DNA from: an uncultured Clostridium sp.
GTDB lineage: Bacteria; Bacillota_I; Bacilli_A; RF39; UBA660
Assembly: GCA_964578175.1 (NCBI GenBank)
Contig: CAZOBH010000006.1
Span: 1-54,530 of the forward strand
Length of the DNA: 54,530 nucleotides
Reading direction: 5' to 3'
A program made the translations under genes and the position numbers. Position 1 is the stretch's first letter, and each line of letters opens with the position of its first letter. The notes under the pieces were generated by a model, which had not been told where the DNA came from, searched no databases, and saw nothing but the letters and a program-made list of their open reading frames with translations. Of the stretch, positions 620-45,261 are shown one piece after another.

Positions 620-762
620 ATTATCACTACCTTTATTTAATTATATAATAAGAAAATATTAAAAAAAATATTATTACATTTTTAAGTGTAAAGTTAATAA
701 GATAATAAATAAATTATGTTATAATGATGTCTATAGAGTTTAAAATACACGAGGAGAGATAT

Positions 763-1425: not shown

Positions 1426-1433
1426 GAGGAAAT

Positions 1434-2228
1434 ATGATAATTAAAGGAGCAAATTTAGAAGATACTGAAGTAGAATTCAGTAATTTAGGTGATATCAACT
1501 ATTTTGATGATAAAAGACAAAATGATTTAGTTAGATATATACAAGATATCTACTATAGTTTAAGTGAACAAGTAGGGGATGTAAGTGAATTCCCAAGAGA
1601 AGGTAATAAAGTAGTAATTAATCCAGGTATGTTAAATCATAGATGTTCAGGGGACTTAGATTCATTAAGAAATATATCTAAATATGGAGTACTTGCTTCT
1701 GAATGGTTTGGAGTATTAGAAAGTGAAATGGAAGGAAGATTCTGTGTATTTATATCTCGTATGAAAGGAGATAATTATCCATATAAAGGAGATCTTGCAG
1801 AAGATGACAGAAGCAGATTAAATATTGGACAAAACATATTATTATTTTTTGATGAAAATAATCCTGTAATGCAACAATTATTACATTTAGATTATTTTGA
1901 ATATGAAAATATAAAAAATAATAATCCAGAATGTTTAAGTAATTATACTGATGAAGAAAGATTATTATTTGACCATTTAATAGAACCATTATCCCCAGCA
2001 GGGACTGATATGAGAAATAATTATAATTCAAAAACTAATTATTGGTCTGCAATACCAGGTGGTATTCCATCAAGATTAGTAAATGGATTATGTATAAAAA
2101 AGAATGATTATAGTGAAGAAGAATTAGAAGAATTAAGTAGTTTATTTCCAAACGCAACAATATTTAATAATAATTTAGAAATAGTACATGAAAGAAAAAA
2201 AGATAAAGAAGAGGGATTAAAAATATAA
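1434..2228 (+). CDS. Hypothetical protein, possible ADP-ribosyltransferase-like fold
   Basis: AGGAGG RBS; 264 aa; LNHRC..SLRNISKYGVLAS, VFIS and GGIPSRLV resemble ART strand motifs (by eye only). Confidence 0.7.
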   Translation: MIIKGANLEDTEVEFSNLGDINYFDDKRQNDLVRYIQDIYYSLSEQVGDVSEFPREGNKVVINPGMLNHRCSGDLDSLRNISKYGVLASEWFGVLESEMEGRFCVFISRMKGDNYPYKGDLAEDDRSRLNIGQNILLFFDENNPVMQQLLHLDYFEYENIKNNNPECLSNYTDEERLLFDHLIEPLSPAGTDMRNNYNSKTNYWSAIPGGIPSRLVNGLCIKKNDYSEEELEELSSLFPNATIFNNNLEIVHERKKDKEEGLKI

Positions 2229-2315
2229 TCTCTTTTTCATTGGGGTTTTACAAAATTGTTTATATTTGTTATAGTTTTAGTAGTGCAATAGTGATTAAAA
2301 CAAGGAGGAATATAT

Positions 2316-5300
2316 ATGAAAGAATCAATATACAAGAAAACAATGGTTTTAATACCTTCAGCTTTTAATAGTAAAGCAATGGGTGATATAGAAAATTTTA
2401 TTATTTTTTATAAAGATATCTTTGATTTATATATTATATGGGATAAAAAGAGTGAAATTATAAATGGAGTAAAATATATATCAAAATTTGATTCAAAAGC
2501 ACAATATTTAATAACAACTGCAGATTACATTATTGATGCCGGTACTATTAATGGAACAACTAAGATTAATAATAACCAAACAAGAATTAGCGTCTGGCAT
2601 GGTACTCCTTATAAAAAAATGTTTGTGGATTTAGATCCTACTAATATAAGCGAAGCTTTAAAATATGATTACGGTGTTGATTTAATGATTTCTCCTTCAA
2701 AATTTTATACAGAAGAGTTTCTAAGAAAATCAATGTTATATGACGGAAAAATTTTAGAAACTGCAATTTCACGAACAGATAGTTTGTATATTACAGATGA
2801 AGAGAAGAGATTGTTAAAAAAATCATTTCATATTGATGAAAATAAGAAAATTTTATTATATGCACCAACATATAGGAATCCTGGAAAAGTAAGACTACAT
2901 TTTGATGCTGGTAAATTAAAAAAATCACTAGAAAAAGATGGTAGTGAATGGGTAATTGTAACAAAACTACATTATCTAAATAAATTAATAAATAAGAGAG
3001 ACGTTATAGATTGTACATCATATCCAAATATAAATAATCTTTTAGCTATATCGGATGTTGTAGTAACAGATTATTCTAGTTTATTTATAGACTATTCTAT
3101 CTTAGATAAACCGGTTATTTTTTATCAATATGATAAAAAAGATTATGATAGTGATAGAGGATTTATGTTCTCGTTAGAAAAATACGTTGATAAAAAGTAT
3201 ATTATAGAAAATGAAAATGAATTATATGAATTAGCATCAAAAATAGAAAAAAAGCCTAATTTAAAAAAAGTAAGAAGTGAGTTTTATCCTTATCAAAAAG
3301 AGAATTCTACAAAAGATTTGGTAAAAAAACTTGACTTAAATGCTGATTCTAGAAAAACAAAAGAGATTATTTTTCTTATAAATGAAGTAAATCAATTAGG
3401 CGGGGTAAATAATTTTGTTATGAATTTTTCTAGGTATTTCAAGAAAAATTATAATTCCAAAATTATAATTGTCGGAATCAAGGAATTTAATAAAAATAAT
3501 AATGAAAATTATATTTTAGATGAAGATAATTTAGTTGATATTAAAGTTTCCTATGAAAATCATCCAAAATTAGTTAAATCCATTTTAGAAAATACAGATG
3601 GTTATATAATAACATGTCAGTTTTCAGCACAAAAAAAATTCCAATCTTTCCTAAAAAATAAAAATGTATTTTTAATGTTCCATGGTAATGGATATGATTT
3701 TGTTAATAGAAATTATTATACGTGGCATTTAGATGCTATAAATAAGAAAAAATTATATAATTACAAGAAATTTTTATTATTAACTGAAGATTATTGTAAT
3801 GCTATTAAAGAAGCGGTTATCCCACAACTAAAAGATAGAATTGGGTATATAGAAAATTCTTATGATTTTAATAATAGAAAAAATTATTATAAGAAATCGA
3901 ATGAATTTGCAGTATTGTCTAGACTTGATGATGACAAGAATATTTTTGATATTATAAAAATATTTTCAAATAAAAATTTAGATGAAAATTTTAAAGTTCA
4001 TGTTTATGGTGATGGAAAATTAAAAGAAAAATTTATTGAGGAAATCAAAAGTAATAAATTAGAAAAAAAGGTAATAGTTCATGGATATGTAGAAGATAAA
4101 AATCAAATGTATAAAGATAAACAAGGACTAATAATGACAACTTTGAGTGAAGGCTTTGGCCTTATAATACTTGAAGCAGCTAGTTATGGAATACCTACTT
4201 ATATTTATGAGTCTGCAGTTGCAGTTAGAGAATTTAAAAAATCTAATGTAATAAATGTAGTTGAAACATCTAATATTGAGGATTATGTAAACAAACTTAA
4301 TAATCCTAAAAAGTTTAGAAAAGAAGATTTTGATAATATCGTATCAATGTTTTCAAATGAGAAGATTTTTGATAGATGGATTGATTTATTTAGTGAAATT
4401 GAAAATGAAAATTGTGTAAACCCTCATTTAAAACAAGTAATTAAAAAAAATATAAAGTCCTTTATTTCAAATATAAAAACAAGCCTAAAAACAAACATTA
4501 AAAAAATATTAAATAAAGACACGAAACAAAAAGATAGAAAGAATAGAATAAAAACATATTTAAAATATATTTATGATAGATATAAATACTATATATTTAA
4601 ACTAAAACGTTTAACAATTAATCGTTATAAAGAACCATTAGTATCTATAATTGTTCCATTTTATAATTGTAATGATACAATAGAAGCTTTGTTAAAATCT
4701 ATAAAAAAATCTGGATATAAAAATTATGAAGTCATAGTTATTAATGATGGTTCATCTGATGATCCAAGAGATATTATAAAAAAATATAAAAAAGTAAGAT
4801 ATTATTATAAGAAAAACGAGGGAGTAGGGTTAGCGAGAAATTATGGATTAGAAAAAATGAAAGGAAAATATTTTTGCTTTTTTGATGCAGATGACACTAT
4901 GTATAAGGGGGCTTTAAATTATTTAGTAGATTATGCAATAAAGAATAATTTACCATTAGTTGCTGGTCAAACTCAAAGAATTATATTGAGTACAAAAAAA
5001 AGATCTTATTGGTTTAGAAAAATTTACAAAAAAAATTATGTTAATAAAATGAGTGATAGAACTTTGCTATTAGATGATTCATTATCAACGAATAAATTAT
5101 ATGAAACTTCGGCTTATAAAAAGAGTGGAATAAAATTTGATTCTGGTTTATATGAAGATAAATTATTTAGTTTTGAATTATATTCATATTATGATAAAAT
5201 CGGAATTATTAATAATATAGTTTATAATTGGTTGGTTTATGGTAATAATTCAAGTATTACAACAATTGCATCATTTGATAATATAAAAGAAAGAATAAAG

Positions 5301-5606
5301 CGAATAGAACAAATATATAATATGTGCGATAATAACTTTAAAAGAGGATATGTAAATTTATTTGTTAAACATGACTTATCAGTATTTATAAATGATTATA
5401 ATAGATATTCTAATAATGATAAGAAAAAAATATTTGACATGTATAGGGAATTTTTTATAAAAACTAAGAAATATATTTATTTCAATAATATTTTAAATGT
5501 TCAAAAAAGGGTTTTATTCCAACTTTTATTAAAAAATGATTTCTCTAGATTTGATTTACTTTCAACATATCTTTCTACTGCATTTCAAAAGAAAAAGTAT
5601 AATTAG
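2316..5606 (+). CDS. Three-domain protein: CDP-glycerol glycerophosphotransferase (TagF-like), GT4-like and GT2 glycosyltransferase
   Basis: WHGTP, YAPTYR and TDYSS (TagF family); SRLDDDKN and EGFGLIILEA (GT-B/GT4); VSIIVPFYN, NDGS and FFDADD (GT2). Confidence 0.85.
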   Translation: MKESIYKKTMVLIPSAFNSKAMGDIENFIIFYKDIFDLYIIWDKKSEIINGVKYISKFDSKAQYLITTADYIIDAGTINGTTKINNNQTRISVWHGTPYKKMFVDLDPTNISEALKYDYGVDLMISPSKFYTEEFLRKSMLYDGKILETAISRTDSLYITDEEKRLLKKSFHIDENKKILLYAPTYRNPGKVRLHFDAGKLKKSLEKDGSEWVIVTKLHYLNKLINKRDVIDCTSYPNINNLLAISDVVVTDYSSLFIDYSILDKPVIFYQYDKKDYDSDRGFMFSLEKYVDKKYIIENENELYELASKIEKKPNLKKVRSEFYPYQKENSTKDLVKKLDLNADSRKTKEIIFLINEVNQLGGVNNFVMNFSRYFKKNYNSKIIIVGIKEFNKNNNENYILDEDNLVDIKVSYENHPKLVKSILENTDGYIITCQFSAQKKFQSFLKNKNVFLMFHGNGYDFVNRNYYTWHLDAINKKKLYNYKKFLLLTEDYCNAIKEAVIPQLKDRIGYIENSYDFNNRKNYYKKSNEFAVLSRLDDDKNIFDIIKIFSNKNLDENFKVHVYGDGKLKEKFIEEIKSNKLEKKVIVHGYVEDKNQMYKDKQGLIMTTLSEGFGLIILEAASYGIPTYIYESAVAVREFKKSNVINVVETSNIEDYVNKLNNPKKFRKEDFDNIVSMFSNEKIFDRWIDLFSEIENENCVNPHLKQVIKKNIKSFISNIKTSLKTNIKKILNKDTKQKDRKNRIKTYLKYIYDRYKYYIFKLKRLTINRYKEPLVSIIVPFYNCNDTIEALLKSIKKSGYKNYEVIVINDGSSDDPRDIIKKYKKVRYYYKKNEGVGLARNYGLEKMKGKYFCFFDADDTMYKGALNYLVDYAIKNNLPLVAGQTQRIILSTKKRSYWFRKIYKKNYVNKMSDRTLLLDDSLSTNKLYETSAYKKSGIKFDSGLYEDKLFSFELYSYYDKIGIINNIVYNWLVYGNNSSITTIASFDNIKERIKRIEQIYNMCDNNFKRGYVNLFVKHDLSVFINDYNRYSNNDKKKIFDMYREFFIKTKKYIYFNNILNVQKRVLFQLLLKNDFSRFDLLSTYLSTAFQKKKYN

Positions 5607-5656
5607 ATTAGTTATATATGAGAAAACATCAAAAATAAACAAAAATAATATAAAGA

Positions 5657-5680
5657 TTGAACTATCAATCTTTTTTATTA
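5657..5680 (+). terminator. Intrinsic terminator (coordinates approximate)
   Basis: AAAGATTGA-ACTA-TCAATCTTT followed by a T-run, after the 5606 stop. Confidence 0.55.
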
Positions 5681-5697
5681 TATAATGTTTATAGGAT

Positions 5698-6831
5698 GTG
5701 AAAGAAATGGTATTTTTATTAACAATATATAAATACATTTTAAAATTTGTTTATTTCTTTTTAAAGTTATTACCAACTAGAAAAAAACAAATATTATTTC
5801 TTAGTAGACAAACTAATGAACCATCACTTGATTTTAAATATTTAATTGATGATATTCATAAAAGATATCCTGATTATAAAGTTATTGTTAAAACCAAAAG
5901 GTTAGAAAAAAATAATCCAATTCAAATAATTAGTTATTTATTTCATCCTTTTGCTCAAATGTATTATTTAGCTACTTCAAGTGTATGTGTTATTGATACT
6001 TTTATTATCCCAGTATCCTGCTTAAAACATAAAAAAAGTCTTAGAATTATTCAAATTTGGCATTCTTTGGCAGCTATTAAAAAGTTTGGATATCAAACAT
6101 TAAATACTGATAAAGATAAAAAAATAGCTAAAGTTATGTGTATGCATAAGAATTATGACGCAATTGTATCTGGATCAGATGAAATGACTAAACACTTTTC
6201 TAAAGCATTTAATTATCCAGAATCTAAATTTATTACTTGTGGTCTTCCTAGAATTGATTATTTGCTAGATACTGAAAAAGATAATAAGAAAAAAGTATAT
6301 AAAGAATATCCAGAACTTAAAAACAAAAAAATAGTTTTATATGTTCCTACTTTTAGAACTTATGATGAATATAAATTTGATGAAATTATAGATACTTATA
6401 AAGATTCTGATTATACTTTAATTATAAAAAAACATGAAAGATCTAAAGTAGATATAGATGAAAAGTATACTTATCCTAAAGTATCATCACTTGAATTATT
6501 GTCAGTTGCTGATTATGTAATAACTGATTATTCCGCAATAGCAGTTGAAGCATCAATTTTAAATAAACCATTATATTTATATATTTATGATTTGGATTTA
6601 TATAATAAATATGAAGGAGTAAATATTGATCTATATAAAGAATTACCTGGATATGTTTTTGATGATATTAAAGATATAAAAAAATCTATGGATAAAAATA
6701 ATTACGATATGAAGAAACTTGATAAATATAGAAAGAAATATGTTACTAATATAGATGGAACTTCAACTAAGAAACTTGTTGATTATATCATTGGAGGAAA
6801 ATATGAGTATAAAGAAAAAAATAAAAAGTAA
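5698..6831 (+). CDS. CDP-glycerol glycerophosphotransferase family protein (TagB/TagF-like)
   Basis: QIWHSLAAIKKFG, GLPRID, YVPTFR and TDYSA motifs; start is either GTG 5698 or ATG 5707. Confidence 0.85.
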   Translation: MKEMVFLLTIYKYILKFVYFFLKLLPTRKKQILFLSRQTNEPSLDFKYLIDDIHKRYPDYKVIVKTKRLEKNNPIQIISYLFHPFAQMYYLATSSVCVIDTFIIPVSCLKHKKSLRIIQIWHSLAAIKKFGYQTLNTDKDKKIAKVMCMHKNYDAIVSGSDEMTKHFSKAFNYPESKFITCGLPRIDYLLDTEKDNKKKVYKEYPELKNKKIVLYVPTFRTYDEYKFDEIIDTYKDSDYTLIIKKHERSKVDIDEKYTYPKVSSLELLSVADYVITDYSAIAVEASILNKPLYLYIYDLDLYNKYEGVNIDLYKELPGYVFDDIKDIKKSMDKNNYDMKKLDKYRKKYVTNIDGTSTKKLVDYIIGGKYEYKEKNKK

Positions 6832-8053
6832 AATAGTAGATATGACTAAGAAAAACGAAACTTTTAGAAAAGTAGTTAGAAAAGGAATATATGAAAAAAA
6901 TAGAGTTAAATATTTAAAATATAAGAATAAACCTATCGATGAAAAAAGAGTTTTATTTGAATCATTTATGGGAAGAAAATATGTAGATAGTCCTAAAGCT
7001 ATATATGAATATATGTTAAATAGTGAAGAGTATAAAGATTATAAATTCGTATGGTTCTTTAAAAATCCTGAAGAACATAAAAATGTTGCTGATAATCCTA
7101 GAACTAAAGTATATAAATATGGATCAGCTGATTATTATAGATTATATGCTACTAGTAAATATTGGATTACTAATAGTAGAGTACCAGATACTATTAGTAA
7201 AAGAAAAGGACAAGTCTATGTACAATGTTGGCATGGAACTCCTCTTAAGAAACTTGGATTTGATATAGAAGTTAAGGGAGGAAATGCAATGAACTCTCTT
7301 AAAGATATTAGATATAAATATGAAGTAGATTCAAAAAAATATACTTATATGGTTTCTCCATCTAGATTTTGTACAGAAAAGTATATATCTGCATTTAACT
7401 TAAAAGCAGTTGGTAAAGAAGACATTGTTATTGAACAAGGATATCCAAGAAATGACTTTTTAATTAATTATACCGAAAAAGATGTTAAAGATATTAAAAA
7501 GAAACTTAAATTACCAAAAGATAAAAAGATAATATTATATGCTCCAACTTGGAGAGATAATCAACATACATCAGGTGTTGGATATACTTATAAAACAGAA
7601 GTGGATTTTGATAAATTAAGAGAAAAACTAGAAGATGAATATATAATATTATTTAGAGCTCATTATTTTGTTGCTAATAGTTTTGATTTTGAAAAATATA
7701 AAGGATTTATCTATAACGTAAGTGATTACGATGATATTAATCATTTATATGTAATTAGTGATATATTAATAACAGATTATTCATCTGTATTCTTTGATTA
7801 TAGTATTTTAAAAAGACCAATATTATTCTATATGTATGATTTAGATGAATATCAACATAATCTTAGAGATTTCTATTTTGGACTTGATGAATTACCTGGA
7901 CCAATTGTTGAAAAAGAAGATGAATTAATTAAAGAAATTGAAAAAACTAAGAAATTTAAGTATGATAATAAATATAAAAAGTTTAATGAAAAGTTTACAT
8001 ATCTTGATGATGGAAAAGCATCTGAAAGGGTCGTTAAGGAAATATTTAAATAG
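6803..8053 (+). CDS. tagF: CDP-glycerol:poly(glycerophosphate) glycerophosphotransferase
   Basis: FESFMGRKYVDSPK, QCWHGTPLK, GYPRND, YAPTWRD, TDYSSVFFD and DDGKAS; GGAGG precedes ATG 6803 (track start 6755 is upstream). Confidence 0.88.
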   Translation: MSIKKKIKSKIVDMTKKNETFRKVVRKGIYEKNRVKYLKYKNKPIDEKRVLFESFMGRKYVDSPKAIYEYMLNSEEYKDYKFVWFFKNPEEHKNVADNPRTKVYKYGSADYYRLYATSKYWITNSRVPDTISKRKGQVYVQCWHGTPLKKLGFDIEVKGGNAMNSLKDIRYKYEVDSKKYTYMVSPSRFCTEKYISAFNLKAVGKEDIVIEQGYPRNDFLINYTEKDVKDIKKKLKLPKDKKIILYAPTWRDNQHTSGVGYTYKTEVDFDKLREKLEDEYIILFRAHYFVANSFDFEKYKGFIYNVSDYDDINHLYVISDILITDYSSVFFDYSILKRPILFYMYDLDEYQHNLRDFYFGLDELPGPIVEKEDELIKEIEKTKKFKYDNKYKKFNEKFTYLDDGKASERVVKEIFK

Positions 8054-8062
8054 GAGGTTTTT

Positions 8063-8566
8063 ATGAAAAGAATATTAACTTATGGAACTTATGATTTATT
8101 ACATTATGGTCATATTAGACTACTTAAAAGAGCTAAAGAAATGGGAGATTATTTAATAGTTGCTATTTCAACTGATGAATTTAATGCTATTAAAGGAAAG
8201 AAAGCGTATCATTCATATGAAACTAGAAAGAAAATGTTAGAAGCAATTAGATATGTTGATCTTGTTATTCCAGAAGAGACTTGGGAACAAAAAAGAGATG
8301 ATGTAATTAATTACAAAGTTGATTGTGTGGTTATGGGAAGTGACTGGGAAGGTAGTGAAAAATTTGAATGTCTAAGAGATTTATGTGATGTTCAATACTT
8401 ACCAAGAACAAAAGGTATATCTACATCTAAAATTAAAAAAGATTTAGGTTTAATGGAACCAAATAATAATCCAAAAGATAATGAATATCCTGAACCAACA
8501 GATGAAAAAGTAGAAACATATACTGGTGGTAGACAAAAAAAGTTAGGGGCTAGAAAAGGAAAGTAA
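8063..8566 (+). CDS. tagD: Glycerol-3-phosphate cytidylyltransferase
   Basis: TYGTYDLLHYGH (HxGH), MGSDW and RTKGISTS; roughly 35-aa C-terminal extension. Confidence 0.93.
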   Translation: MKRILTYGTYDLLHYGHIRLLKRAKEMGDYLIVAISTDEFNAIKGKKAYHSYETRKKMLEAIRYVDLVIPEETWEQKRDDVINYKVDCVVMGSDWEGSEKFECLRDLCDVQYLPRTKGISTSKIKKDLGLMEPNNNPKDNEYPEPTDEKVETYTGGRQKKLGARKGK

Positions 8567-8587
8567 TTTTCCTTTTTAATTTATATA

Positions 8588-9661
8588 ATGCGTAAATATG
8601 GATTAGATTTATTAAAAATTTATTCAATGTTTTTAATTGTTGTACTTCATTTTTGTGCATCAATTATAAGATATAACACTTTAAATCCAGCTAGTTTAAA
8701 ATCAGAAGTATATTATTTAATTTTTACAATTACATATTGTTGTGTTGATTGTTATGTATTAATTACTGGTTATTTTTATAAAAATAATACCGGTAAATTA
8801 AATAAATATTTAAAACTTTGGTTAATGGTATTCTTTTGGTCATCATTGTTAGGTTGTTTTGGATATTTCTCAGGGTATATTAATAAAAAAGAATTGTTTC
8901 AGTATTTCTTACCATTAACATATAATAAGTATTGGTATTTTACTGCTTATACAATTTTATATTTTACCTGTCCATACTTAAATAAGTTAATTGAGTCTTT
9001 AAATAGAAAAGAATTTAAAAGATTATTAATAATTGGATTAATATTCTTGTGTATTATTGATTTACCATTTGAAACATTTAGAATAGATAGAGGACTTCAT
9101 TTTAGTTGGCTTTTCTTTTTATATTTATTTGGTGCATATATTAGAATTTATGAACCTATGAAAAATATAAAGAATATTAATTTAATAAAAATATCTATTT
9201 TTTGTATAGGATCAGCTTTTCTATCTAAATACTTAATTGATTATATAGCTAAATATCAATTAACTATTGCAAATACTATTTTCTTAGATAGAAATAATTC
9301 AATATTTATAGTTATTTATGCTTTATGTATGTTTGAATTATTTAAAAGAATTAGAATAAATAAAAAGATTATAAGTAATATCATACTTACCGTTTCTAAA
9401 ACTACTTTTGGAATATTCTTAATACATTATAATTACGTTATTTTGAGTATGTTCTTAAGAGAAAAACTATGGTATGTATATAAAGAAAGAATTCTATATA
9501 GTTTAGAAGATACATTATTCTTTTGTATATTAATATTTATTATTTGTATGATACTTGAATATATTAGACAAAAACTGTTTAAACTATTTAAGATAGATAA
9601 TTTAGTAGATAAATTTGTAGATAAAATTAAATCTATAAAAGTACTTGTTTTGACAAATTGA
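8588..9661 (+). CDS. Acyltransferase-3 family membrane O-acyltransferase
   Basis: DLLKIYSMFLIVVLH, VDCYVLITGYF, YWYFTAY and TFGIFLIH; multiple TM segments. Confidence 0.85.
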   Translation: MRKYGLDLLKIYSMFLIVVLHFCASIIRYNTLNPASLKSEVYYLIFTITYCCVDCYVLITGYFYKNNTGKLNKYLKLWLMVFFWSSLLGCFGYFSGYINKKELFQYFLPLTYNKYWYFTAYTILYFTCPYLNKLIESLNRKEFKRLLIIGLIFLCIIDLPFETFRIDRGLHFSWLFFLYLFGAYIRIYEPMKNIKNINLIKISIFCIGSAFLSKYLIDYIAKYQLTIANTIFLDRNNSIFIVIYALCMFELFKRIRINKKIISNIILTVSKTTFGIFLIHYNYVILSMFLREKLWYVYKERILYSLEDTLFFCILIFIICMILEYIRQKLFKLFKIDNLVDKFVDKIKSIKVLVLTN

Positions 9662-9678
9662 TATTTTTTTGATATTAT
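9650..9678 (+). promoter_or_regulatory. Sigma-A promoter for the Arg-leader operon
   Basis: TTGACA (9650-9655), 17-nt spacer, TATTAT (9673-9678). Confidence 0.75.
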
Positions 9679-9702: not shown

Positions 9703-9762
9703 ATGAGTAATATAGTTAATACAATAGCTAGAAGACGTAGAACTCATACACTTGTGAAATAG
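9703..9762 (+). CDS. Leader peptide 1 (MSNIVNTIARRRRTHTLVK)
   Basis: AAGGAAAAGG upstream; four consecutive Arg codons AGA AGA CGT AGA at 9730-9741. Confidence 0.75.
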   Translation: MSNIVNTIARRRRTHTLVK

Positions 9763-9826
9763 TATTTATACTAGGACACAGGTGATTTAATGGTGCTTGT
9801 GTCTTATAGTTGTTATATAAATAAAT

Positions 9827-9861
9827 AACCTATGTGATATAAGCACATAGGTTTTTGTTTT
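9827..9861 (+). terminator. Attenuator terminator after leader 1
   Basis: AACCTATGTG-ATATAAG-CACATAGGTT perfect 10-bp stem followed by TTTGTTTT. Confidence 0.8.
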
Positions 9862-9871
9862 GGAGGTAACT

Positions 9872-9913
9872 ATGGAAAATATTTTAATTATAAGACGAAG
9901 ATTATTACGGTAA
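9872..9913 (+). CDS. Leader peptide 2 (MENILIIRRRLLR)
   Basis: GGAGG at 9862-9866; Arg codons AGA CGA AGA and a final CGG. Confidence 0.75.
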   Translation: MENILIIRRRLLR

Positions 9914-10009
9914 CTTGTACTTTTATTAGTACAAGTATTTTGACATGCCTGTACTAATCCTAGAAATTGTTTATTAGTACAGGTTAATAGATAATTTTTA
10001 GGAGGATAT
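9913..10009 (+). promoter_or_regulatory. Alternative hairpins, including an SD-sequestering stem (translational attenuator)
   Basis: 9913-9920:9929-9936; 9925-9933:9950-9958; 9948-9958:9973-9983; 9958-9977:9984-10003, the last covering part of the AGGAGG RBS. Confidence 0.65.
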
Positions 10010-11062
10010 ATGAAAGAAGAAATAATAAAAACATTAAAAGATTTATTAAGTTTTAAAACTTATAAAGATAATAAATTAGAATTTGATAAATTATTTAATT
10101 ATATAAAAAAAGAATATAAAAGTTTAAATATAGAAGAATATGTATTTGATAATAAAAAGTGTTTAGTACTTAGTAATAGTAAGTCTCATGATTTAGATAT
10201 AATATTTTGTTGTCATATAGATGTTGTATATGCAGATGATTATAGTATTAAAGAAGATAATGATAATCTATATGGAAGAGGAACTATCGATATGAAAGGT
10301 AGTACTGCAGTGTGTCTTAATATTATGAAAAATCTAAATACTGATAAAAAAATAGCATTATTTATTACAAGTGATGAAGAAGTAGATGGTTATACTGCTT
10401 CATGTCTTGTTAAAGAATATAATAGTAAGTTTGCAATAGTACCAGATGGAGGATCTAATTTTGAACTTATTAGTGAAGAAAAAGGATTAATGCAATTAAA
10501 ACTTAGTGTTAATACTAAATCATGTCATGCAGCTCAATTATTTAATGGAGAAAACGCTATTGTTAAACTATTTGATGTTTATAAAAAAATAATAGAGAAG
10601 TATCCATTACCTAAATCAAGTAATGATTATATTACTAGTATTAATTTATCTAAATTAAATGGAGGAACATCTAATAATCAAGTTCCTGGTTATGCTGAAA
10701 TGATCTTAGATATTAGAAATATTAAATCAGATAGTTTAGATAAAATATTTAAATTTATTAAAAATATAGATAAAGATGTAAAAGTAGAAACAATTATAAT
10801 TGGACCTACTTTTAGTACTAATTTAAATAATAAGTATGTAAAACAATATATTAGCTCTTGTGAAAAAATACTAAATAAAGATATTAAAATAATTGGATGT
10901 GAATCAACTAGTGATGCTATTTTCTTTAGTGAGAAGAATATACCTACTGTTATTATGAATCCTTGTGGATATTATGCCCATTCTCCACAAGAATATGTCA
11001 ATAAAAATAGTTTATTAGATTTATATAATATTTATTATGATTTTATTAAGGAGTTTAAATAA
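10010..11062 (+). CDS. M20 family metallohydrolase (ArgE/DapE-like)
   Basis: CHIDVV, GRGTIDMKG, DEE, HAA, SDA and HSPQE metal-ligand motifs. Confidence 0.88.
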   Translation: MKEEIIKTLKDLLSFKTYKDNKLEFDKLFNYIKKEYKSLNIEEYVFDNKKCLVLSNSKSHDLDIIFCCHIDVVYADDYSIKEDNDNLYGRGTIDMKGSTAVCLNIMKNLNTDKKIALFITSDEEVDGYTASCLVKEYNSKFAIVPDGGSNFELISEEKGLMQLKLSVNTKSCHAAQLFNGENAIVKLFDVYKKIIEKYPLPKSSNDYITSINLSKLNGGTSNNQVPGYAEMILDIRNIKSDSLDKIFKFIKNIDKDVKVETIIIGPTFSTNLNNKYVKQYISSCEKILNKDIKIIGCESTSDAIFFSEKNIPTVIMNPCGYYAHSPQEYVNKNSLLDLYNIYYDFIKEFK

Positions 11063-11814
11063 TGGAAGCTCTTAATAAAAAAACAGTAAATATCGATTTA
11101 AACTATTTATATTATAGAGCAATATTTTTAGACGATTCAGAGTTTAGAGTATGGAAAAAATTAGAAAATGGTTGTTCTATTGCAACTATGGGTTATTCTG
11201 AAGAAAATGTTTTAGTACTTATGAAATTATTAGAGTCTTTTGCCGAACAATACGGAGAAGAAATAACTTATGAATCAGCAAGTGATGAATTAAAATTATA
11301 TCAAGATAATGGTAAATTATTTATTTATCTTGATGAAAATAATAATCCAGTATCTATGAATGGAGTTACTTATAATGAAGATAATATTAGCGTAGGTTTT
11401 GGAAGTTCTGATGATAGAGATATTTCATCTTTATATTTTTATGGATTATCAACAGTTCATGAATATAGGGGGAAAGGTGCTTGTAGAACATTGATTGATT
11501 TCGCTATTCAATATGCTTATTACAATAATTTTGATTTAGTATATGCAAGAACTGATTTAATTAATTCTAATTCCGAATGGATTATGCAAAACGCTGGTTT
11601 AGAAGTATGTAAAAATGATAATGATATTATAGCTGAATGGGTACCTGTAACTGAGTCTAAAGGTGATTATAGACTTCATATGTGGTTACCTTTAAAAGAA
11701 GATATTTATATATATCCAAAGGAAGATGCAATTATGGCTGATGGTATTACAAGAGAAATAAAAGTTAAAAAAGATAAAGTAAAAAAGAAGGATTTTGTTT
11801 ATGAAGAAATTTAA
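11062..11814 (+). CDS. GNAT family N-acetyltransferase
   Basis: Motif A STVHEYRGKGACRTLI and N..S..IMQNAG; translationally coupled to the upstream gene. Confidence 0.75.
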   Translation: MEALNKKTVNIDLNYLYYRAIFLDDSEFRVWKKLENGCSIATMGYSEENVLVLMKLLESFAEQYGEEITYESASDELKLYQDNGKLFIYLDENNNPVSMNGVTYNEDNISVGFGSSDDRDISSLYFYGLSTVHEYRGKGACRTLIDFAIQYAYYNNFDLVYARTDLINSNSEWIMQNAGLEVCKNDNDIIAEWVPVTESKGDYRLHMWLPLKEDIYIYPKEDAIMADGITREIKVKKDKVKKKDFVYEEI

Positions 11815-12529
11815 AATTAATGATGAAGTATTTGATATTTTAGGAGATATATCAGTAGGTGTATTAGTTCTTAAAAATGTTAATGAGAATAAAAAGTTAA
11901 GTGATATAGAATCAAAAGAAATAAAAGAGTTACTTGAAAATAGTAATAATTATTCTAAAAAGTATTTAACAAGTGATGTTATATCTGAAAATGATGTTGT
12001 TAAAGTATGGAGAGAAATATATCAAAAGTTTCCGACTAAAAAAGGAGTTCGTTGTTCTTTAGAAAATTTACTTAAAAGAGTATTACATGATAATCCAGTT
12101 GGAAGTATTTTACCATCTATAGATATTACTAATTCTATTTCCTTAAAATATGCTTTACCAATAGGTGCAGAAGATTTAGATAAAATAGATGGTGATTTGT
12201 TTTTAGGAGTTATGGAAGGATCTGAACATTTTCTACCTATTGGAAGTGAAGAAGAAGATAAACCATTAAAAGGTGAAATAGCATATTGTGATAATTATGG
12301 AGTTGTATGTAGATGTCTTAATTGGAGAGATGGAGTAAGAACTGAAATAACAGATGATACAACGTTAGAATTTATCGCAATGGAATGTGTTGAAAAAGAT
12401 AAACTTGATGATCTAAATAATGCTCTTCTAGAACTAGCTAATTTGATGAGTAAATACTTAGATTGTGAAGTAGTATTGAAAACAATAGTTGATAAAAATA
12501 ATAAAGAAGTTGTTTTAATTGAAGGATAG
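11801..12529 (+). CDS. Stand-alone B3/4 (PheRS-beta editing-like) domain protein
   Basis: WREIY..F.TKKGVRCSLENLLKR, DITNSISLKYALPIGAEDLDKIDG and CRCLNWR are typical of the family; ATG 11801 follows AAGAAGGA. Confidence 0.85.
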   Translation: MKKFKINDEVFDILGDISVGVLVLKNVNENKKLSDIESKEIKELLENSNNYSKKYLTSDVISENDVVKVWREIYQKFPTKKGVRCSLENLLKRVLHDNPVGSILPSIDITNSISLKYALPIGAEDLDKIDGDLFLGVMEGSEHFLPIGSEEEDKPLKGEIAYCDNYGVVCRCLNWRDGVRTEITDDTTLEFIAMECVEKDKLDDLNNALLELANLMSKYLDCEVVLKTIVDKNNKEVVLIEG

Positions 12530-12550
12530 TTTAAATATCCTTTTTTTTAT
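12522..12550 (+). terminator. Intrinsic terminator (copy 1 of a direct repeat)
   Basis: AAGGATA-GTTTAAA-TATCCTT plus T-run. Confidence 0.75.
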
Positions 12551-12619
12551 AATTTACATTAATAATATTTGTTTAGTATACTTTAATTGAAAAAATAAGT
12601 ATATGAAGGAGTGTTATTA

Positions 12620-13498
12620 ATGGAAGAAGTATCACAAGAATTTTTAGACTTTTTTTGTGTAAGATTAGATCAAATACCAATTCAGGGAAATATAGGTGAT
12701 TGTTTACATTGGGAATTTAATTCAAGCAAATCTCCTTCACTAAATGAAAGTGAATTTATTTATTATGAGGGAACCATTAATTTTACATATAATGGTGTAA
12801 CTTATATAAGTCGTGATGGAGACGATGTTAGAGCATATTTAAGTAGTAAAGGATTTAAGGATTGTAAACATGGTAAAAGAGCAGATACAATTTTAGCAGC
12901 TTGGTATAGTATTACTAGTACGATGATTTATAAATATCATGTTGATGATCCTGTTTTTAGAAAATATGCAGCTATTGCTCTTCCCCATCACCTAAGTCCT
13001 ACTTTAACTAGTAAAAATATTGGAAGAACAGATGAAGAAATACATAGAACTATTGAAAGAGTTAGAGAAGAAGAAGCTATTTTTTCTGATGATGCTAGTA
13101 AGTGGTTAGAAAGTGAATGGGGAAAATATTTACAAGTTGAAAGAGATAGATTATTATTTGATGTTGCTGTTAATCATATGCAATCTAGCTTAGATAGATT
13201 AGGTTATGGTAATGTACATTTAAAGACTGATGATATTAGTATTGAAGCTAGAGAGAGAATAATTAATTATTGGCTAAAATCTAATGGAATTGATGAGCAA
13301 TATAGTTTATCTGGTCCATATAAAGATCTGATAAATGGTAAGAATTTTGATAATAACAATCCGATTATTATTGATACTGAATATGAACAAAATCCTTTAA
13401 TGAGACCCAAACCAATTGCTATATCTGTAGATGAAGTTGTTAATGCTTTGGATAGTTTAATTAACTCTAAAAATAATACGAATAAAATGAAAATATAA
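12620..13498 (+). CDS. Hypothetical protein (orphan)
   Basis: GAAGGAG RBS before ATG 12620; about 292 aa; no motif recognised. Confidence 0.7.
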   Translation: MEEVSQEFLDFFCVRLDQIPIQGNIGDCLHWEFNSSKSPSLNESEFIYYEGTINFTYNGVTYISRDGDDVRAYLSSKGFKDCKHGKRADTILAAWYSITSTMIYKYHVDDPVFRKYAAIALPHHLSPTLTSKNIGRTDEEIHRTIERVREEEAIFSDDASKWLESEWGKYLQVERDRLLFDVAVNHMQSSLDRLGYGNVHLKTDDISIEARERIINYWLKSNGIDEQYSLSGPYKDLINGKNFDNNNPIIIDTEYEQNPLMRPKPIAISVDEVVNALDSLINSKNNTNKMKI

Positions 13499-13546: not shown

Positions 13547-13591
13547 TTATAAAAAAAGCGTATACTAATTATGAGAGTTATAGGTGAGAAT

Positions 13592-15082
13592 ATGAAAAAC
13601 AACATAGTTGAATATTTGGATGAAGTTATAAAAAATAATCCAAGAAAAAATATTTTTATTGAAAAGAATAGAAAGATTACTTATAAAGAATTTGGTAATC
13701 AATCTAAAAAAATAGCATCTAATATTTTAGATAAATATGATTTAAAAAATAAACCAATTGCTATATTTATAGATAAATCTATTAATTGTTTATTATCTAT
13801 GTTTGGTACATTATATAGTAGAAATTTTTATTGTGTAATAGATGTTAATTCACCCAAGAATAGAATAGATACTATTATTAATACTTTAGAACCTAGTTTG
13901 ATTATTACTGATAATAAGAATATAGATAAAATTAAAAATTATTCTTATTCTATAAATATATTAAATATAGATGAACTAGATGATATTAAGTTTTCTAATT
14001 TTAAAATTAATTATTGCCTTACAGATCCAGCATATGTTTTATTTACTAGTGGATCTACTGGAGTACCTAAAGGTAGTGTAATACTTGAGAGTTCTTTAAT
14101 TAGTTATATAGATTGGTTTAAAGAAGAATTTAATATTAATAAAGAAACTGTTTTTGGTAGTCAAACGCCATTTTATTTTAGTATGTCAGTATCTGATATT
14201 TTTGCAACTGTTGTTAGTGGAGCGACATTTGTAATAATACCTAAAGTTAATTTTTCATTTCCTTTAAAACTTATAGAATTTTTAAATGAATATAAAATAA
14301 ATACTATTTATTGGGTCCCATCAGCACTAGCAATAGTAGCTAATTTAAAAACATTTGATTATATAAAACCAAAGTATTTAGAAAAAGTATTATTTGCAGG
14401 TGAAGTTATGCCAATGCCTGTACTAAATATTTGGAGAAAACATTTACCAAAATGTTTATATGCAAACTTGTTTGGACCTACAGAAACAACTGATATATTT
14501 GCTTTCTATAAAGTTAATAGAAAGTTTAAAGACAATGAAACATTACCTATGGGAGTTCCTTGTAAAAATGTAGATATTATTATGATTGATTCTGATAATA
14601 AAGAATCAAATGAAGGAGAAATATATGTAAGGAGTCCTTTTGTAGGAAACGGATATTATAATAATAAAGAAAAAACAGATGTTAGTTTCATTCAAAATCC
14701 TACTCATAATAATTATATAGATATAGTTTATAAAACAGGAGATCTTGGTAAATATAATAAATATGGAGAAATAGAATATCTTGGTAGAAAAGACTTTCAA
14801 ATTAAACATATGGGATATAGAATAGAACTTGGTGAAATTGAAAGTAATATTAATTCTTTAGATGGAATAAATATTTGTGCTTGTATTTATCAAGATGATA
14901 AGATAATACTATATTATGAATCAAATAATCTAGATGATGATGATGTAGTAGATTTTTCTAATAAACATTTACTAAATTATATGAGACCTAATGTTATTAA
15001 AAAGATTATTAAAATGCCATATAATGCAAATGGTAAAATAGATAGAGTTAAATTAAAAGAAATGTATAAAGAAGGAGAATAG
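13592..15082 (+). CDS. Stand-alone adenylation domain, DltA-like
   Basis: YVLFTSGSTGVPKG, NLFGPTETT, YKTGDLG, GRKDFQIKHMGYRIELGEIE and NGKIDR; GGTGAG before ATG 13592. Confidence 0.9.
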   Translation: MKNNIVEYLDEVIKNNPRKNIFIEKNRKITYKEFGNQSKKIASNILDKYDLKNKPIAIFIDKSINCLLSMFGTLYSRNFYCVIDVNSPKNRIDTIINTLEPSLIITDNKNIDKIKNYSYSINILNIDELDDIKFSNFKINYCLTDPAYVLFTSGSTGVPKGSVILESSLISYIDWFKEEFNINKETVFGSQTPFYFSMSVSDIFATVVSGATFVIIPKVNFSFPLKLIEFLNEYKINTIYWVPSALAIVANLKTFDYIKPKYLEKVLFAGEVMPMPVLNIWRKHLPKCLYANLFGPTETTDIFAFYKVNRKFKDNETLPMGVPCKNVDIIMIDSDNKESNEGEIYVRSPFVGNGYYNNKEKTDVSFIQNPTHNNYIDIVYKTGDLGKYNKYGEIEYLGRKDFQIKHMGYRIELGEIESNINSLDGINICACIYQDDKIILYYESNNLDDDDVVDFSNKHLLNYMRPNVIKKIIKMPYNANGKIDRVKLKEMYKEGE

Positions 15083-15084
15083 AT

Positions 15085-15306
15085 ATGAAAGAAATAATTG
15101 AAATTTTAAATGAAGTTAAACCAGGAGAAGATTATGAACATGAAGAAGAATTAGTTAGTAATGGAATATTAACATCTTTTGATATAGTAACTTTAATATC
15201 TTTATTAAATACTAAATTTGATATATCAATTACAGTTACTGATTTAGTTCCTGAAAACTTTGAATCAGCAAAAACTATAAAAGAATTAGTTGATAGATTA
15301 AAATAA
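15085..15306 (+). CDS. Acyl/aminoacyl carrier protein (DltC-like)
   Basis: 73-aa acidic protein with GILTSFDIV (phosphopantetheine Ser) and PENF. Confidence 0.85.
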   Translation: MKEIIEILNEVKPGEDYEHEEELVSNGILTSFDIVTLISLLNTKFDISITVTDLVPENFESAKTIKELVDRLK

Positions 15307-15325
15307 TTAGAAACTGGTGGGAGAT

Positions 15326-16813
15326 ATGAATTATACGTCATTAAACTTTTTACTATTTATATCAGTAATAGTACTTATATATTATTTGTTCCCTAAAAAG
15401 TATAGATGGACTGTATTACTAGTAAGTAGTATTATTTGTTATTACTTAATGAGTGGTTGGTTATTACTTTTTGTTATACTTGGAACACTTATATCTTATA
15501 TAGGTGCTAAAATATTAGAAAAAGAGAAGAAAAGAAAAAAGAAAATATTTATATTAACTCTTATATTAGTATTAGGATTCTTACTTGTACTTAAATATAA
15601 TAATTTTATTAGTTCTTTATTAAATCCTATTTTAAACTTAGTTAATTTAAATATTCCATTTAAGAAGTTTATATTACCGGTAGGTATATCTTACTATACA
15701 TTAGAGATGATATCTTATATATCTGATGTATATTTAAAAAAGATAAAAGCAGAAAAGAACTTTTTTAAATTATTAACATTCTTTACTTATTTTCCAAAAG
15801 TATTAGAAGGACCAATTTCTAAATATAGGGAAATATCTAAAGATATGTTTTCTATTCATAAATTCAATTATGATAGTTTTAGAAAAGCTTGGATATTAAT
15901 TGGAATAGGATTTATAAAAAAATTAGTTATAGCTGATAGAGCTGGAATATTTGTTAATAATTTCTTTAGTGATGGACACACTGGTCTTTTAACTATAGTT
16001 GCAGTCATTATGTATACGATCCAATTATATTTTGATTTTAGTGGATGTATAGATATTATTTCAGGAGTATCTGAATTATTTGGAATTAAGTTACCTGAAA
16101 ACTTTAGACAACCATTCTTTAGTAAATCAATTGAAGAGTTTTGGAGAAGATGGCATATTACTTTAGGTCTTTGGTTAAAAGAATATATATTCTTTCCAAT
16201 ATCATTATCTAAAATGAATATGAATTTAAATAAGAAAATGAGAAATGTTAAATTCAAACATTTATCTAGGTTTATAATAATAGCTTTCCCATTATTCTTT
16301 GTTTGGTTCTTTAATGGTTTATGGCATGGACCTACAATAAAATATGTATTATATGGATTATATTATTATATATTGATGATGTTAGGAGTGTTATTTAAAC
16401 CTATTTTAGATAAACTTGTTAAATTATTAAGAATTAATACTAAAGTGTTTAGTTATAGATTATTTCAAATATTAAGAACAACAATAATAGTATGTTTTGG
16501 AATGCTTATATTTAGAACTGAAACTATACCTGAAGTATTTGAAATAATTAAAAATATTAAAATAAGTGACCCAGTTAATTTCTTTGATTTAGGAATTAAC
16601 ATAAAAGAATTTGTACCTTTCTTAATATCATTATTTGCAATGTTCTTTATTAGTTTAGCTAAAGAGTTAAAAATAAATGTAAGAGAAAAATTAGAAGAAC
16701 AAAATCTAGTATTTAGATGGTGTGTATATTGGATAATAATATTTACAGTTATAATATTTGGTGTATACGGAAAAGGTTATGATGCAGCTAGTTTTATCTA
16801 TGGAGGCTTCTAA
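15326..16813 (+). CDS. MBOAT family O-acyltransferase (DltB/AlgI-like)
   Basis: LPVGISYYT, FDFSGC, ENFRQPFFS, EFWRRWHITL and LWHG. Confidence 0.92.
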   Translation: MNYTSLNFLLFISVIVLIYYLFPKKYRWTVLLVSSIICYYLMSGWLLLFVILGTLISYIGAKILEKEKKRKKKIFILTLILVLGFLLVLKYNNFISSLLNPILNLVNLNIPFKKFILPVGISYYTLEMISYISDVYLKKIKAEKNFFKLLTFFTYFPKVLEGPISKYREISKDMFSIHKFNYDSFRKAWILIGIGFIKKLVIADRAGIFVNNFFSDGHTGLLTIVAVIMYTIQLYFDFSGCIDIISGVSELFGIKLPENFRQPFFSKSIEEFWRRWHITLGLWLKEYIFFPISLSKMNMNLNKKMRNVKFKHLSRFIIIAFPLFFVWFFNGLWHGPTIKYVLYGLYYYILMMLGVLFKPILDKLVKLLRINTKVFSYRLFQILRTTIIVCFGMLIFRTETIPEVFEIIKNIKISDPVNFFDLGINIKEFVPFLISLFAMFFISLAKELKINVREKLEEQNLVFRWCVYWIIIFTVIIFGVYGKGYDAASFIYGGF

Positions 16814-45184: not shown

Positions 45185-45261
45185 GTCTCGTTAGCTCAGC
45201 TGGATAGAGCACCGCCCTTCTAAGGCGGGTGTCGAGAGTTCGAATCTCCCACGGGACACCA
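45185..45261 (+). tRNA. tRNA-Arg(TCT)
   Basis: GTCTCGT...ACGGGAC-A-CCA; anticodon arm CCGCC-CT-TCT-AA-GGCGG; GTTCGAAT. Confidence 0.93.

Follow-up and report, generated by a model that had tools for sequence, protein, structure and literature searches.

An arginine-attenuated M20-GNAT gene pair joined to a CtdA homologue in uncultured gut Bacilli

What would bring a metallo-hydrolase, an acetyltransferase and a putative tRNA-editing protein together under the control of arginine codons? The question is posed by positions 10010-12529 of contig CAZOBH010000006.1 (assembly GCA_964578175.1), of which a stretch of 54,530 nt, hereafter the window, was analysed. Here three translationally coupled genes on the plus strand encode a hydrolase of the M20 family, an acetyltransferase of the GNAT type and a stand-alone B3/4 protein; on their 5′ side a strong promoter is followed by two Arg-codon-rich leader peptides in tandem, and on their 3′ side lie a hairpin and U-run. 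A preliminary description of this DNA had seen in the three genes a candidate defence against arginine analogues such as canavanine, and their layout is as it described, with overlapping genes behind an Arg leader and a terminator at the end, but this layout proves to be an exception among relatives. The answer that we reach, and hold tentatively, is that the operon may be an arginine-limitation module guarding the tRNA-Arg pool against arginine look-alikes. The three genes are as follows.

10010..11062, plus strand: M20A metallo-hydrolase of 350 amino acids, ArgE/DapE-like (Pfam Peptidase_M20 and M20_dimer)
11062..11814, plus strand: GNAT-fold acyl-CoA N-acyltransferase of 250 amino acids (AlphaFold2 model, coenzyme A (CoA) P-loop)
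11801..12529, plus strand: stand-alone B3/4 protein of 242 amino acids, CtdA homologue (Pfam B3_4, PDB search, AlphaFold2 model)

The GNAT ATG and the M20 stop codon share one base (TAATG). For B3/4, the start was placed at ATG 11801 and not at TTG 11795 because homologues begin MKKF, which gives a GNAT-B3/4 overlap of 14 nt; its Shine-Dalgarno sequence is AAGGA. Translational coupling of the genes follows from these overlapping stop and start codons.

Arginine-codon leaders and their attenuators

The region upstream of the M20 gene holds the following elements.

9650..9678, plus strand: sigma-70-type promoter (TTGACA, 17-nt spacer, TG-extended TATTAT; 11 of 12 consensus positions)
9703..9762, plus strand: leader peptide 1, MSNIVNTIARRRRTHTLVK, with Shine-Dalgarno sequence GAAAGGAAAAGG and the Arg run AGA AGA CGT AGA at 9730-9741
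9748..9804, plus strand: alternative pairing segments of attenuator 1, from covariation, RNAalifold and ribosome-mask folding (segment 1, 9748-9756; inner helix, 9760-9764 with 9769-9773; segment 2, 9774-9784; segment 3, 9795-9804)
9827..9862, plus strand: intrinsic terminator of attenuator 1, a 10-bp stem followed by TTTTGTTTT (terminator scan; hairpin 9827-9853 and T-run)
9872..9913, plus strand: leader peptide 2, MENILIIRRRLLR, with Arg codons AGA CGA AGA at 9893-9901 and a terminal CGG at 9908-9910
9914..9942, plus strand: hairpin CTTGTACT/AGTACAAG, then TATTTTG, a candidate second terminator directly 3′ of the leader 2 stop codon

Conservation was judged on 32 species-representative loci encoding a relative of the window GNAT, with neighbourhood data spanning 10-20 kb around each match; all are uncultured gut Bacilli or 'Tenericutes' metagenome-assembled genomes from human, mouse, chicken and ruminant hosts. 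A leader with 3-5 consecutive Arg codons (RRR to RRRRR) stands 5′ of the operon in 31 of the 32, while leader residues outside the Arg run vary between species. In the sole exception, locus L021 (2530-2600), the pairing segments are retained, but the ATG is not in frame with the RRR run and segment 1; the cause is an indel from assembly or else decay of the attenuator. Of the codons in 38 leaders, 25% encode Arg, versus 1.8% in the operon genes. Leaders come in tandem in five loci (the window, L010, L023, L035 and L044), and promoters with a TTGACA box equivalent to that of the window were seen 5′ of the leaders in L010, L011 and L021.

The RNA helices covary in the manner of a switch. In helix 1:2, 86% of cells are paired, versus 24-45% when the partner columns are slid, and the covariation score is 0.379 versus 0.04-0.09 for the slid controls; compensatory changes occur at all five inner pairs, and the loop of the helix encloses the leader stop codon. 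Helix 2:3 was predicted independently by RNAalifold, with both-side changes in 6 of its 13 pairs. Segment 3 is moreover complementary to the loop and 3′ arm of the terminator at 9827-9853, from which we take the latter pairing to be the antiterminator. That terminator was one of two sites called by a scan against 0.3 expected from shuffled sequences, the second being the same palindromic hairpin on the opposite strand. With a ribosome masked at the first Arg codon, folding gave helix 1:2 and the antiterminator; with the mask at the stop codon, it gave helix 2:3 and the terminator. The switch was seen in the window and in five other loci, and elsewhere the simple minimum-energy model showed none.

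These elements suggest how the operon would be controlled. Transcription from the strong promoter would meet the two tandem leader-peptide attenuators. Where Arg-tRNA is plentiful, the ribosome would pass the Arg run and reach the leader stop, melting helix 1:2, whereupon segment 2 would pair with segment 3, the terminator would form and transcription would stop. Where Arg-tRNA is scarce, the ribosome would stall at the first Arg codons and leave helix 1:2 intact, such that segment 3 would pair into the terminator and RNA polymerase would continue into the genes. A further hairpin, AU-rich and of about 20 bp (9958-10004), is predicted to sequester the AGGAGG ribosome-binding site of M20 in every folding state tried, which hints at an additional translational layer after leader 2.

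Rfam found no riboswitch in the window, and its only matches to known RNAs in the window and related loci were one T-box and tRNAs; guanidine-I, -II, -III and -IV riboswitches were likewise absent from the window and from the regions 5′ of B3/4 homologues in 10 related loci. Since leader conservation, covariation and mask folding agree, and no riboswitch was found, control by Arg codons is well supported: the attenuation is real, conserved and covariation-backed, and the earlier proposal that Arg codons act here in place of a guanidine riboswitch is borne out.

The leaders also favour codons that the genes avoid. Among 680 leader codons, CGG occurs 16 times and CGA 24 times, against 0 and 4 times among the 19,622 of the operon genes; in 19 of 38 leaders the stop is immediately preceded by an Arg codon, which is CGG in 13 of these. 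The genes of the window (16,452 codons) use CGA five times, CGG once and CGC not at all. An alternative genetic code was considered, given the report that in uncultivated RFN20-order Bacilli AGG has come to encode Met and CGG Trp (PMC8629427); in a small check on limited data AGG, CGA and CGG fell on conserved Arg columns, so that the standard code applies here. AGA, the Arg codon that dominates both genome and leaders, is read by a tRNA-Arg(UCU) encoded at 45185-45261.

How far the control extends was gauged by scanning metagenome contigs for the exact pattern of segments 2 and 3. Ten of the 66 matches carry an Arg-run leader, and all 10 precede M20 or GNAT. The remaining matches, which have no Arg-run leader before these genes, were taken as chance, and a wider regulon under the same attenuator was rejected. 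Across 52 fetched loci, RRR leaders with a Shine-Dalgarno sequence occur almost exclusively before the M20/GNAT operon.

In its plan the attenuator resembles those of trp, his, leu and pheST: regulatory codons follow one another in a short leader that is translated, the helices are mutually exclusive, and an intrinsic terminator stands before the genes. Unlike these classical examples, the leader mixes codons of different tRNA-Arg isoacceptors and is enriched in the rarest, CGG and CGA; its stop codon lies in the loop of helix 1:2, segment 3 pairs into a separate terminator hairpin, and the arrangement is sometimes tandem. To our knowledge, arginine is not among the classical amino-acid attenuators. 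The Arg-sensing leaders of Staphylococcus aureus rbfL (PMC13009471), which acts by occlusion of a ribosome-binding site, and of Salmonella speF (PMC6386406) exert other kinds of control. Whatever the substrate of the enzymes, the leader provides a clean, covariation-supported example of a rare class, in uncultured gut Bacilli.

The M20-GNAT cassette and a CtdA homologue

The unit that this leader governs across species is a pair. M20 and GNAT genes are adjacent in 31 of 31 judgeable species loci, the remaining locus ending at a contig edge; the order is M20-GNAT in 26 and GNAT-M20 in five, and the genes usually overlap. This leader-plus-operon architecture recurs in 31 of the 32 species-representative genomes and in 10 metagenome contigs, far more than chance. 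B3/4, in contrast, lies in the operon in none of the 32 representatives: it is found there only in the species of the window and in two related contigs, L010 and L048, and possibly in one further short contig, with a B3/4-GNAT overlap of 14-20 nt in three loci. From the constant M20-GNAT adjacency, the varying flanks and the leaders that always precede M20/GNAT, it follows that leader, M20 and GNAT form an autonomous cassette to which B3/4 is a clade-specific addition. The preliminary description had treated the three genes as one module, and in this it has to be revised, the conserved unit being M20 and GNAT with their Arg leader.

The flanking genes change by lineage and are housekeeping in kind (tsaE/B/D, rimI, xerC-like, dacA, sortase, MgtC and others), and apart from the CtdA homologue no gene was seen to have joined the operon. 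No conserved third gene that would reveal a substrate appears across 34 loci, and no argB, argC, argD, argF, argG or dap gene is among the recurring neighbours of the pair there. In L027, L029, L034, L036, L037 and L042, the leader, M20 and GNAT sit between rimI and tsaD of a tsaE-tsaB-rimI-tsaD cluster (for example, L029 2860-6600), an insertion which implies that the cassette moves as a unit. A mobile element was considered and rejected, since neither 72,556 plasmids nor 50,697 phages gave a tblastn match to the GNAT.

Given such synteny, co-transcription by chance is unlikely, and we attach next to no probability to the extreme case in which M20, GNAT and B3/4 are functionally unrelated and merely share a transcript. 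That case would fit the absence of B3/4 from the operon in 32 of 32 representatives and its habit, elsewhere, of standing as a monocistronic gene with its own promoter. It is contradicted by the pairing of M20 and GNAT in every readable representative in both gene orders, by the overlapping stop and start codons that indicate translational coupling, and by the overlap of B3/4 with GNAT in three loci. An arginine-limitation module, to which we return below, presupposes that the added gene has some business with arginine, and here the B3/4 protein is informative.

By sequence, structure and key residues, B3/4 is a member of the CtdA-1 family, with a putative substrate assignment. It scores 77 bits against Pfam B3_4, and a sequence search of the PDB returned the CtdA entries 9f7e (E 1.4e-21) and 9mkl (E 1.9e-20), these two only; no phenylalanyl-tRNA synthetase (PheRS) chain appeared at E up to 1. 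Its AlphaFold2 model (mean predicted local distance difference test, pLDDT, 93.4) superposes at full length on both CtdA structures, with TM-scores of 0.79-0.84 over 231-233 aligned columns, versus a query-normalised TM-score of about 0.55 for the editing domains of PheRS beta; Foldseek E-values are 4e-18 for CtdA versus 2e-9 for PheRS. Identity to the Salmonella and Pseudomonas CtdA cores is 35%, and the assayed enzymes of P. canavaninivorans and C. perfringens are themselves 35% identical to one another (PMC10018355). Mutagenesis of S. enterica CtdA has shown N105, G116 and C166 to be required, C166 also separating CtdA-1 from CtdA-2 (PMC12449066); the equivalents of all three are invariant in 120 B3/4 homologues, the window protein included. 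It is on account of the CtdA-only PDB matches, the full-length superposition and the retention of these residues that the protein is filed under CtdA-1.

Like the CtdA-1 enzymes of P. canavaninivorans, S. enterica and C. perfringens, the window protein is a stand-alone protein of about 230-240 amino acids with the B3/B4 fold. Position 173 is Asp in 119 of the 120 homologues, that of the window included, whereas it is Gln in S. enterica CtdA and Glu, likewise acidic, in the active C. perfringens enzyme (PMC12449066, PMC10018355). A second difference concerns I189 of CtdA, a position occupied by Ala in most members (Ala 76, Ile 31 and Val 12 of 120). Nor does the window gene stand beside canavanine-degradation genes or under a guanidine riboswitch, but under Arg-codon attenuation, and its relatives lie under an Arg T-box or beside arcABCD.

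Those relatives place the family in the company of arginine genes. In L004 (4387-6726), and also in L005 and L006, the order is T-box, argH, B3/4, with the CtdA homologue 14 nt after argH (653 bits); the T-box scores 105 bits, its specifier is AGA if the register of the Rfam model is used, and argG is not adjacent to this locus. In L046, B3/4 follows an arcA/arcB fusion, arcC and arcD, while in L050 it precedes arcA, arcB, arcC and arcD, and in another locus it lies two genes downstream of arcB-arcC-arcD. Further homologues stand at unrelated sites (after rel, before ffh, near transposases), where they are usually monocistronic with a promoter of their own. Taken together, these contexts point to arginine rather than to canavanine catabolism. 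The fusion in L046 (238-2541) is a single open reading frame (ORF) of 767 amino acids joining arginine deiminase (ArcA) to ornithine carbamoyltransferase (ArcB). In L050 an M20D-type amidohydrolase gene (3820-4908, minus strand) is divergent from B3/4-arcABCD, a second, independent adjacency of an M20 gene and a CtdA homologue; kinship of this enzyme with the cassette M20 was considered and rejected, as it belongs to the unrelated M20D amidohydrolase family.

Possible roles of the hydrolase and the acetyltransferase

The M20 protein is recognisable as an intact enzyme. It scores 81 bits for Peptidase_M20 and 49 bits for M20_dimer, and residues H69, D71, D94, E123, E124, D146, H173 and H324 are conserved at 97% or above in 121 sequences, such that the metal ligands, catalytic Glu and dimer-domain His are all kept. 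Assigning it further is harder. Every NCBIfam equivalog model falls under its cut-off: the DapE-ArgE subfamily model gives 140 bits (cut-off 218), the best ArgE models 89 bits (cut-offs 298-460) and DapE models 83-128 bits (cut-offs 284-381). Its nearest PDB entries are the uncharacterised 2rb7, DapE and ArgE. The best matches are thus ArgE/DapE-type N-acyl-amino-acid deacylases, far below curated cut-offs, and by the tests applied to its sequence the protein is not a plain DapE, ArgE or dipeptidase.

The GNAT is more isolated still. Its Pfam match to Acetyltransf_1 is weak (22.7 bits), yet the AlphaFold2 model (pLDDT 90.5) shows a confident GNAT fold, for which Foldseek returned 679 PDB matches at E ≤0.001, those listed being GNATs. 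Within the CoA P-loop (R136-G-K-G-A-C141), R136, G137, G139 and C141 are invariant, and K138 and A140 vary. The structural neighbours are generic, with query-normalised TM-scores of about 0.5: the N-terminal acetyltransferases RimI and Nat, SpeG, and the phosphinothricin, methionine-sulfoximine and arsinothricin acetyltransferases. Up to E 10 phmmer matched no PDB chain, and up to E 0.01 no NCBIfam model was matched, those of N-acetylglutamate synthase (NAGS) and amino-acid N-acetyltransferases included. In a library of 1.84 billion representatives the family makes up just one cluster at 50% identity, and the next full-length relatives, at about E 1e-14, are unnamed GNATs with weak matches to generic GNAT models only. 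It is an isolated, new family.

An acetyltransferase beside a deacylase recalls arginine biosynthesis. In that case the GNAT would be a new, short NAGS and the M20 an acetylornithine deacetylase, an ArgA/ArgE-type pair that opens and closes the acetylated ornithine pathway in place of ArgJ; argB, argC and argD would be encoded at other sites in the genome, and the CtdA homologue would merely be co-expressed. Such a pair would account for both enzymes, for their obligate pairing and for a classical biosynthetic type of control, and the best family matches of the M20 are indeed ArgE/DapE deacylases. The B3/4 of relatives rides with a biosynthetic gene, argH, under an Arg T-box, and the arg genes would seem to be scattered in this group, as argH stands there without argG. 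The window pair resembles ArgA/ArgE in combining a GNAT acetyltransferase with an M20A deacylase under arginine regulation, but differs in falling under all curated cut-offs, by a wide span in the case of ArgE, and in having neither a NAGS signature, nor any other NCBIfam match for the GNAT, nor nearby arg genes: none of argB, argC, argD, argF and argG accompanies the pair in the 34 loci. Its carriers, furthermore, are genome-reduced gut Bacilli for which many auxotrophies and expression of arginine degradation are reported (PMC13155120), and whose relatives have arcABCD. We consider a biosynthetic pair unlikely, though it deserves to be kept in view.

Improbable, in our judgement, is salvage of arginine by way of an N-acyl protecting group, in which the GNAT would acylate a modified or D-form arginine compound, an enzyme encoded elsewhere would convert it, and the M20 would deacylate the product to L-Arg. 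There are known routes of amino-acid salvage that begin with a GNAT and end with an M20 deacylase (PMC9706529; bioRxiv 10.1101/2022.03.03.481873), namely B. subtilis YxeL/YxeK/YxeP, which leads from S-(2-succino)cysteine to cysteine, and a Geobacillus GNAT/NSAR/M20 route from D- to L-amino acids. As in the window, a GNAT is joined there by a deacetylase or desuccinylase (M20-family in Geobacillus) that recovers an amino acid; induction by arginine limitation would fit, and the hosts are probably auxotrophs (PMC13155120). Both precedents, however, encode the middle enzyme in the same cluster, whereas the window operon has none in or near it and the 34 loci hold no third conserved gene; nor was a candidate substrate found.

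The nature of the sensor invites one more comparison. It reports the charging of tRNA-Arg and not arginine itself, and so could serve an inducible immunity to an antibiotic directed at arginyl-tRNA synthetase (ArgRS), after the logic of the MccE acetyltransferase and MccF peptidase: once ArgRS is inhibited, tRNA-Arg would lose its charge and the leader would be tripped, whereupon a toxic mimic of arginyl-adenylate would be acetylated by the GNAT and cleaved by the M20. If the two enzymes detoxify independently of one another, a pair that is self-contained in either gene order would be explained, and peptide N-terminal acetyltransferases (RimI, Nat) are among the top structural matches of the GNAT. 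Against this, MccF is a serine peptidase and not an M20 enzyme, no transporter or biosynthetic genes lie nearby, we know of no arginine-directed compound of such a kind, and the sole footing of the idea is analogy. We regard it as very improbable.

Any explanation has to accommodate a pair that is obligate and self-contained, that is predicted to be induced when tRNA-Arg charging drops, and whose sole addition is a putative tRNA-Arg proofreader. These constraints lead us back to an arginine-limitation module guarding the tRNA-Arg pool. In such a module, B3/4 would hydrolyse tRNA-Arg bearing an arginine look-alike, of which canavanine is the known case, and mischarging would be most likely when arginine is scarce relative to its analogues. 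M20 and GNAT would constitute a self-contained two-enzyme device for the pool of free amino acids: by acetylating the alpha-amino group, the GNAT would put the look-alike, and inevitably some arginine with it, beyond use by ArgRS, and the ArgE/DapE-like M20 would deacetylate N-acetyl-arginine, returning arginine to the pool. The net effect would be to sort arginine from its analogues at the cost of acetyl-CoA. In the clade of the window, a proofreader at the tRNA level would have been fused to this device at the amino-acid level under one sensor, with B3/4 clearing any tRNA-Arg mischarged despite the cassette. Of this scheme, the regulatory steps and the presence of a CtdA-1-type free-standing editing enzyme as the third gene are shown or strongly supported.

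A precedent comes from other Firmicutes, in which a GNAT that acetylates canavanine, and not arginine, is co-regulated with CtdA (PMC10416765). That enzyme, the guanidine-riboswitch-associated canavanine N-acetyltransferase LcGNAT of Lactobacillus curiae, shares with the window GNAT the fold, CtdA-type co-regulation and a gut Firmicutes host. The two otherwise differ: the window GNAT has 250 amino acids, versus about 170 aligned for LcGNAT, with extra strands; it always has an M20 partner and a different sensor; and it has no detectable similarity in sequence to LcGNAT, which is of the PaiA/SSAT subclass, its SpeG-type matches being generic structural ones.

Several observations weigh against a guarding role. 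A phmmer search of all PDB chains at E up to 10 detected no sequence relation between the GNAT and LcGNAT, for which a crystal structure has been reported, and the structural matches of the GNAT are only generic. We know of no direct precedent for an M20 that deacetylates N-acetyl-arginine beside a detoxifying GNAT. A single small clade supplies the whole case for a functional link of B3/4 to the pair, as no species representative carries B3/4 in the operon. At the second attenuator, minimum-energy folds gave no clear switch, although its hairpin (9914-9942) has a predicted energy of -9.0 kcal/mol and L010 has an equivalent hairpin 3′ of its own leader 2. Leader-peptide attenuators, moreover, classically control biosynthetic operons, which favours the ArgA/ArgE-type pair. 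Finally, steady exposure to canavanine is not obvious for all of the hosts, be they human, mouse, chicken or ruminant.

The last point raises the prospect of another kind of substrate. Conceivably, though we would not expect it, M20 and GNAT form an undescribed two-enzyme sorting device, triggered by a falling charge of tRNA-Arg and fused here to a CtdA-type proofreader, for which the look-alike is perhaps endogenous, such as citrulline of the deiminase pathway, rather than plant canavanine. An endogenous look-alike in arginine-fermenting gut Bacilli would explain the CtdA homologues beside arcABCD and argH.

What the preliminary description had said of CtdA, of B3/4 and GNAT genes linked to guanidine riboswitches and of a canavanine-acetylating GNAT is accurate (PMC10018355, PMC10416765, PMC12449066), and its identification of a stand-alone B3/4 protein of the CtdA family agrees with sequence, structure and key residues. 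It had tied its proposal to co-occurrence of the three genes in other genomes, to closeness of B3/4 to CtdA and to an M20 other than a plain DapE or dipeptidase: the genes largely fail to co-occur, B3/4 does not fall far from CtdA, and by the tests applied to its sequence the M20 is not a plain form of either enzyme. Defence against canavanine itself thus gains part of its support, from B3/4 as a CtdA homologue, and loses part, the GNAT being unrelated in sequence to the known canavanine acetyltransferase and the M20 not assignable. Because the module is not conserved, the GNAT is unrelated and the M20 cannot be assigned, canavanine detoxification becomes one hypothesis among several.

Taken singly, the components are familiar: a protein of the CtdA family, members of the GNAT and M20 superfamilies, and attenuation by leader peptides. 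We found no published description of the arginine attenuator class, of the isolated GNAT family with its obligate M20 partner, of a CtdA homologue fused to M20 and GNAT, or of recurrent CtdA homologues beside argH and arcABCD, all of which appear new. Should the guarding role hold, the cell would secure the fidelity of arginine translation twice, in the pool of free amino acids and on the charged tRNA, with one sensor reading tRNA-Arg charging directly. The widespread CtdA family would gain a physiological setting outside legume-associated bacteria, an open question of Maldonado et al. 2025, and a role would be found for a gene pair that has no annotation and is conserved across many of the uncultured Bacilli with reduced genomes that inhabit the guts of humans and livestock.

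The end of the operon and its surroundings

Downstream of B3/4, a single element closes the operon.

12521..12549, plus strand: AU-rich hairpin and U-run (RNAfold: 8-bp stem at 12521-12543, then U7)

The hairpin overlaps the B3/4 stop codon. The terminator scanning tool made no call at 12521-12543, where the GC content is too low for the tool (that of the window is 25.9%), and a terminator here is plausible. A promoter-like site at 12553-12582 precedes the next gene, an ORF at 12611-13498 that has no family match in Pfam or NCBIfam and differs from the gene at the same position in L010.

No arg biosynthesis genes adjoin the operon, and neither arg nor dap genes were found among the window ORFs scanned between 724 and 38021; together with the recurring neighbours in other loci, this confirms the earlier remark that no other such genes are adjacent. 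PADLOC gave no match for any of four proteins, and anti-phage defence was rejected.

The operon is surrounded by a cell-envelope cluster (724-9661 and 13571-16813) with genes for teichoic acids and D-alanylation, comprising a VanX-like M15 dipeptidase, three TagF-like glycerophosphotransferases, a TagD-like cytidylyltransferase and an MBOAT protein, as well as a DltA-like ligase that scores under its curated cut-off. Farther along, two neighbouring large ORFs (27391-29886 and 30030-33314) each contain nested antisense ORFs of matching sizes (167 and 125 amino acids) at the same relative positions, and are probably tandem paralogues encoding surface proteins; one of the two carries an N-terminal methylation motif and a Listeria-Bacteroides repeat.

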